Source of the DNA: Escherichia coli
GTDB lineage: Bacteria; Pseudomonadota; Gammaproteobacteria; Enterobacterales; Enterobacteriaceae
Length of the DNA: 64,000 nt
Strand: one strand, 5' to 3'
NCBI RefSeq assembly: GCF_044324875.1
Contig: NZ_CP172185.1
In this document: piece after piece, positions 46,416 to 46,645 of the stretch
Position numbering within the stretch: position 1 is the first letter of the stretch
Layout of the letters: every line of letters starts with the position of its first letter
The notes under the pieces: generated by a model
Database searches by the model: none
The model's input: the letters and a program-made list of their open reading frames with translations, nothing else
What the model was told of the DNA's origin: nothing
Position numbers and translations under genes: made by a program

Positions 46416-46645
46416 GCATCAGGCAAAGTTGTTATTGTCGGATGCGGCGTGAACGCCTTATCCGACCTACACACAGCACTTAACTTGTAGGCCTGATAAG
46501 ACGCGGCAGCGTCGCATCAGGCAAGGCTGTTATTGTCGGATGCGGCGTAAACGCCTTATCTGACCTACACACTGCCCGAATTCGTAGGCCTGATAAGACG
46601 CGGCAGCGTCGCATCAGGCGCTGCGGTGTATATCTGATGCGCATT
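46416..46645. repeat. BIME: cluster of about four REP elements between pepA and holC
   Basis: Alternating copies of cggatgcggcgtgaacgccttatccgacctaca and tgtaggcctgataagacgcggcagcgtcgcatcaggc. Confidence 0.7.

Follow-up and report, generated by a model that had tools for sequence, protein, structure and literature searches.

REPs and BIMEs bind several proteins (gyrase, IHF, HU and Pol I) and stabilise the 3' ends of mRNAs. The closest described relatives of the locus considered here are the BIME-2 and REP (palindromic unit) clusters of Escherichia coli described by Gilson, Bachellier and Hofnung. These consist of imperfect palindromes of ~35 nt with a GTAG/CTAC tail, in which Y and Z types alternate across short linkers; they are extragenic, their unit number varies between strains and many copies are present per genome. 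The Rfam family naRNA4 (RF02564) is derived from one such element, the REP325 BIME.

The second reference system is IS621, a member of the IS110 family with a body of about 1277 bp between duplicated CT cores and no need of terminal inverted repeats, together with its bridge RNA (Choi et al. 2003; Durrant et al. 2024, PMC11208160; Hiraizumi et al. 2024, PMC11208158). The natural target of IS621 is ATCAGGCCTAC, with recombination taking place at the CT core at positions 8–9. The target-binding loop itself encodes ATCGGGCCTAC, and the difference between the two at position 4 is tolerated as an rG:dT pair. The 9-nt LTG AUCGGGCCU pairs with the bottom strand, and the 4-nt RTG GUAG pairs with the top strand. 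Double mismatches had a low tolerance in the published screen, and wobble pairing was documented for position 4 alone. Insertions in BL21(DE3) made use of 129 or more exact ATCAGGCCTAC sites. It was also reported that IS110 elements excise scarlessly and that off-target insertions are seen experimentally (all from PMC11208160).

The window, i.e., the whole stretch of 64,000 nucleotides that was analysed, belongs to an E. coli chromosome: its segment 44000–49000 matches lptF-pepA-holC-valS in 5,414 of 5,426 complete genomes. The spacer between pepA and holC, with its two flanking genes, comprises the following features:

44902..46413 (+), pepA (leucyl aminopeptidase), flanking the BIME on its 5' side
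46416..46645 (no strand), BIME (BIME-2-like) of the pepA-holC spacer, four REPs that alternate in orientation, incomplete REP arms at either edge
46437..46470 (+), Y-type REP 1, tail ATCCGACCTAC (46460–46470), non-cognate for IS621
46487..46522 (−), Z-type REP 1 (pepA-proximal), exact IS621 target ATCAGGCCTAC at 46487–46497 (−), CT core 46489–46490, empty here
46535..46568 (+), Y-type REP 2, tail ATCTGACCTAC, non-cognate for IS621
46584..46619 (−), Z-type REP 2 (holC-proximal), exact target ATCAGGCCTAC at 46584–46594 (−), core 46586–46587, empty here
46672..47115 (+), holC (DNA polymerase III chi), flanking the BIME on its 3' side

The two REP types are provisionally named Y and Z2, after the consensus sequences of the Gilson/Bachellier nomenclature. 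The elements are arranged in the order Y(+) Z(−) Y(+) Z(−), and all four are imperfect palindromes, each with 14-nt arms of 86% complementarity and a GTAGG/CCTAC tail. Together they form a unit of ~98 bp, one Y-REP plus one Z-REP, that is present twice as a direct repeat; repeat families of 62–63 nt were found at a spacing of 97–98 nt and are 83–92% identical. The cluster is wholly extragenic and fills the spacer from the pepA stop at 46413 to the holC start at 46672, which agrees with the original prediction of a four-REP BIME at this place. The number of units varies by strain: K-12 has one (in a spacer of 159 bp), the window and CUVET20-416 two each, and GPEC403-625 three. REPs are dispersed in many copies, and BIME-containing queries match a median of 10–13 places per E. 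coli genome. The naRNA4 model matches 46490–46565 (−) with a score over the gathering threshold. A scan of the BIME for promoter and terminator consensus sequences found none, and the RefSeq feature table of K-12 has no REP feature annotated in the pepA-holC spacer. Nothing substantive sets this cluster apart from the BIME-2 and REP clusters described above; 46416–46645 is an ordinary E. coli BIME and its biology is known.

The exact 11-mer ATCAGGCCTAC occurs twice in the 64 kb, both times at the tail of a Z-REP of this BIME, against 0.03 occurrences expected by chance. With its LTG and RTG, the bridge RNA would recognise ATCAGGCCTAC in either Z-REP, and recombination would take place at the CT core. 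The Y-REP tails ATCCGACCTAC and ATCTGACCTAC combine a true mismatch at position 4 with a wobble at position 6. Nineteen IS621 insertion sites were sampled, and none of them was a Y-REP; three of these sites (H138, H74 and H111) were picked for their intragenic-looking annotation, so an intragenic fraction is not derivable from this sample. It follows that the earlier view of the REPs as unoccupied IS621 targets was right for the two Z-type elements, which carry the exact target and are empty, and does not extend to the Y-type elements, which have the position-4 mismatch. Both Z-REPs are competent yet empty IS621 landing sites that are rarely used, and the Y-REPs are not cognate.

Their use in nature was tested directly by building a synthetic locus with IS621 at a Z-REP core and running it against the 5,426 complete E. 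coli genomes. An IS621 copy was found in the pepA-holC BIME of two genomes (CUVET20-416 and GPEC403-625), in both cases in the predicted orientation and exactly at the boundary of GTAG and AGGCCTGAT in the holC-proximal Z-REP. The pepA-proximal Z-REP is occupied in none of the 5,426. The copy in GPEC403-625 is of the same IS621 subtype as the copy in the window (9 differences vs 30). In the natural-site lists of Durrant et al., no flank matches the pepA-holC BIME sites. IS621 itself is present in 1,635 of the 5,426 genomes; among genomes with at least one match, the median number of matching places is 5. Since a genome holds few IS621 copies and more than 100 exact REP targets, the occupancy per site is a few per cent at most, and two empty Z-REPs in the window are therefore expected. 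The GTDB representative genomes gave no exact match to the pattern of the IS621 left end, and complete E. coli genomes therefore served as the source of natural sites. As a side observation, the 11-mer is followed by G at the used BIME sites (ATCAGGCCTAC then G), which could extend the RTG pairing, and by A at the unused pepA-proximal site; with n = 2, no conclusion is drawn.

Nine REPs are present in the window in total. Those outside the pepA-holC BIME are the following:

587..618 (+), Y-type REP, tail ATACGGCCTAC
5310..5341 (+), single Z-like REP, tail ATCTGGCCTAC mismatched at position 4 only
42313..42348 (+), single Z-like REP, tail ATCATGCCTAC mismatched at position 5 only
60238..60323 (no strand), second BIME, Z1-like REP (60238–66) plus Y-REP (60292–60323), tails ATTAGGCCTAC and ATCCGGCCTAC, each one position off the natural target

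Each of them has at least one true mismatch to the IS621 target. The REPs that had been placed at 5294–5340, 42312–42348 and 60238–60327 in the original prediction are thus real with slightly different borders, and the element at 587–618 had been missed. The second BIME differs in type from that of the pepA-holC spacer, as it joins a short Z1-like REP to a Y-REP through an AT-rich linker of 25 nt (…ctgcaatttattgaattt…). This linker may resemble the IHF-binding L motif of BIME-1/RIP elements.

The window holds exactly one copy of IS621, and, as had been noted before, it is located in a coding sequence, namely a PDC-S02 endonuclease gene. The features of the copy and of the interrupted gene are as follows (guide definitions from PMC11208160):

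31496..32234 (−), Mrr-like restriction endonuclease (Mrr_cat; PADLOC PDC-S02), 3' part, interrupted
32233..33514 (−), IS621, variant subtype, body 32235–33512 (1278 bp), flanked at both ends by a CT core (AG on the + strand)
32340..33320 (−), IS621 recombinase, 326 aa, intact, DEDD_Tnp_IS110 and Transposase_20 domains
33321..33498 (−), bridge RNA region, 178 nt
33441–33449, 33418–33421 and 33367–33375 (−), LTG ATCGGGCCT, RTG GTAG and LDG ACAGTATCA, respectively, within the bridge RNA region
33513..33765 (−), PDC-S02 endonuclease gene, 5' part (codons 1–84)

With canonical IS621, the copy shares the 326-aa DEDD/Tnp_20 recombinase (domain matches with E-values of 1.5e-24 and 8.9e-26), the CT cores at both ends, the donor junction (ACAGTATCTTGTAT) and all three guides, as its LTG, RTG and LDG are those of the canonical element; the LDG ACAGTATCA faces the donor ACAGTATCT. 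The bridge RNA region is predicted from its sequence to fold with z = −3.4. Unlike the canonical element, the copy belongs to a minority subtype, has an altered LTG-RTG hairpin and sits in a gene instead of a REP. It is 97.7% identical to the common IS621 annotated in RefSeq, and just 51 records are at least 99% identical to it. From canonical copies it differs at ~30 positions (~2.3%) and in length (1278 vs 1277 bp). The differences include four amino-acid changes in the recombinase, given from the window to the canonical sequence as T248A, L251M, V279A and A319S, and four further changes within the bridge RNA region (IS positions 15, 74, 79 and 81), of which one affects its first nucleotide (position 15) and the others the small hairpin between LTG and RTG (G74A, C79U and +C81). 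The closest relative of the window copy (99.8%) is found in NZ_LR778147.1 at 4327194–4329189 (H56), as two pieces whose distance exceeds that in the query by ~700 bp. The match overlaps an annotated IS200/IS605 tnpA, and an IS200/IS605 element seems to interrupt this relative.

When the IS and one CT are removed, the sequence reads …CCTTCTAATCGGACCTATTTAATAGGG…, by which the target ATCGGACCTAT and an intact ORF of 329 aa are restored; the gene is cut at codon 84. The window copy is therefore not in the REP target ATCAGGCCTAC, from which ATCGGACCTAT differs at 3 of 11 positions. Compared with ATCGGGCCTAC as encoded by the guides, the occupied site retains the CT core and all but two of the 11 Watson-Crick pairs, the differences being at position 6 (G to A) and position 11 (C to T). 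Under the published geometry, both differences would form rG:dT wobbles, the same pair as that at position 4, and we infer that wobble pairing explains why ATCGGACCTAT is tolerated. An unaltered bridge RNA would in this way guide IS621 into a near-cognate site with the CT core kept and two wobbles. The wobble-compatible motif AYCRRRCCTRY has a match probability of 1.5e-5 per position. In the natural-site list of Durrant et al. for this target loop, ATCAGGCCTAC is entered 596 times, and ATCAGACCTAC, which has the wobble A at position 6, 20 times, vs one entry each for C and T; a transition bias among REP variants could mimic such a wobble enrichment. The counts for position 11 (C to T) were not used, because several of the ATCAGGCCTAT entries have chimeric flanks. 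The latter consist of a REP left side and a FUSC-gene right side and stem from IS-mediated rearrangement.

The same intragenic site has been used before. It is listed in Supplementary Data 2 of Durrant et al. as the natural target TBL_ATCGGGCCTAC_seq108, which shares with the window the locus, the 11-mer ATCGGACCTAT and the adjoining 27 nt on the left and 16 nt on the right; the alleles differ at two bases, located 18 and 21 nt away from the core (TTGCC in the window vs TAGCG). Among the complete genomes, 134 have the PDC-S02 gene, with the site empty in 120 and occupied in 13. Over the IS plus flanks, all 13 occupied genomes share ~97.6% identity with the window, in agreement with the canonical subtype. 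For two of them (L003 and L004), the copies were compared and are canonical, being 0–4 bases away from canonical copies elsewhere and 29–32 from that of the window. One metagenome contig also has the canonical subtype at the same endonuclease junction. In the same Supplementary Data 2, entry seq107 has the endonuclease left flank of seq108 (…CCTTCTAATCGGACCT) joined to an unrelated right flank (ACGAAAGCTAATC…); read from the flanks, this junction would imply an IS621-mediated deletion or inversion that started from the endonuclease-site copy in some genome.

Other genes are hit as well. In NZ_AP048497.1 (L009) and NZ_CP030331.1 (L020), a FUSC-family gene is split by IS621 at ATCGGGTCTAT, which has T at position 7; one of the two genomes has the variant subtype there and the other the canonical one, which makes this a second recurrent intragenic near-cognate site. 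A fimbrial gene with an exact ATCAGGCCTAC is likewise occupied by IS621. The original prediction had offered a single, possibly off-target insertion as the reading of the window copy, and the IS621 copies in these two further genes speak against it.

Taken together, the best explanation, which we regard as very likely, is that the insertion was guided by the bridge RNA into a near-cognate site that has been used more than once in nature, while the Z-REPs of the BIME are competent and were left empty. A random insertion into the coding sequence, independent of the guides, would be in keeping with a site that is not a REP and is 3 of 11 positions off the natural target, and off-target insertions have been seen experimentally (PMC11208160). 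Against it stand the conserved CT core, the 9 of 11 guide matches within a motif of such low match probability, the presence of another IS621 subtype at the identical position in 13 genomes and one metagenome contig, and the entry of the site in a published list of natural targets. This reading, and with it the suggestion of an off-target event in the original prediction, is already largely refuted and we consider it very unlikely. A bridge RNA reprogrammed by drift of its target loop toward the intragenic site would be in keeping with the minority subtype and with the four changes in the bridge RNA region. The LTG ATCGGGCCT and the RTG GTAG are untouched by these changes, though, and copies of the same subtype elsewhere occupy ATCAGGCCTAC REPs, including the pepA-holC BIME of GPEC403-625. 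Since the guides are unchanged, the bridge RNA was not reprogrammed; this reading is ruled out, barring an indirect effect of the hairpin changes on specificity, and its probability is very low.

One ancient insertion at the endonuclease site could have been inherited vertically and diverged in place, with the empty alleles produced by precise excision. IS110 elements do excise scarlessly (PMC11208160), and the flanks of the window and the occupied genomes diverge by ~1.6–1.9%, which is similar to the divergence of the IS (~2.3%). Divergence in place would give private changes, yet the subtype-diagnostic changes are shared with dispersed copies: the window copy is nested in the variant clade with 4–5 differences from REP-borne copies at unrelated loci and one private substitution, and no difference separates the L003 copy from those at three unrelated REP loci. 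This placement of the copies in the IS phylogeny rules out divergence in place, and a single ancient insertion is accordingly rated as highly improbable. As divergence in place is rejected and two IS621 subtypes are found there, at least two insertion events took place at the endonuclease site. A single event may account for all 13 occupied genomes, in which case the recurrence rests on the two subtypes, and gene conversion from IS to IS could in principle swap subtypes with no new insertion. The same recurrence also allows a bolder reading, in which ATCGGACCTAT would be a recurrent and reversible landing pad, where guided insertion would silence a defence nuclease of the leuX island and scarless excision would restore it, much like an RNA-guided phase switch. 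The occupation of ~10% of the alleles, the two subtypes and the ORF that is intact once the IS is taken out point in this direction; we nevertheless hold such a switch to be very unlikely.

A guided insertion need not have happened in this strain. Homologous recombination may have brought the allele, interrupted beforehand, into an M7424-like island, with no transposition in this strain, and we give this an even chance. The island is nearly identical to that of M7424, where the site is empty: there are 31 substitutions in 8.4 kb, 25 of them within 1 kb of the IS. Fifteen substitutions private to the window lie between −777 and +130 of the IS (about 31460–32234 and 33515–33645), and only one of the 31 lies beyond ±1.75 kb. 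Most of the changes are synonymous; the restored ORF has four amino-acid differences and no interruption. Judged by its SNPs, the patch around the IS suggests a recombination tract. On the other hand, the divergent patch could have arrived empty and received IS621 later, and the divergent allele, empty or occupied, is absent among the 5,426 genomes. Import by recombination would be compatible with a guided insertion into the near-cognate site, as it concerns the place of the event only.

The PDC-S02 gene is part of a defence island at 23085–39445, beside tRNA-Leu(CAA), in which the following were identified:

23085–26147, 26152–27306, 27303–28766 and 28763–30364, type I R-M system: hsdR, hsdS and tandem hsdM (the last two), respectively
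30506–31156, ThsB-like TIR protein
33894–37409, Mokosh type II MkoC
38181–38960, HNH protein
39361–39445 (−), tRNA-Leu(CAA)

Two RNA matches were recorded elsewhere in the window. The Rfam family Ysr276, an antisense sRNA of Yersinia, matches in full length at 45460–45654 (−), antisense in pepA (184.6 bits vs a gathering threshold of 100), and this match probably just reflects the conservation of pepA. A magnesium riboswitch (RF01056, 125.8 bits) lies at 63175–63290 (−), upstream of an 898-aa ORF at 60385–63081 (−). By the gene order of K-12, this riboswitch would be the mgtA leader.

All of these findings fit the published biology of IS621 and of REPs and are already known in kind, and they have little significance beyond annotation. 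For surveys of defence systems, recurrent IS621 insertion that inactivates a nuclease of a defence island is a minor point. Where IS621 is used for genome editing, the prediction of off-target sites should score G:T wobbles as partial matches, given that a site with two such positions is used repeatedly in nature. For the element itself, the rules of bridge-RNA targeting closely predict the natural IS621 sites, and the exact REP 11-mers of the pepA-holC BIME are real landing sites in other strains.
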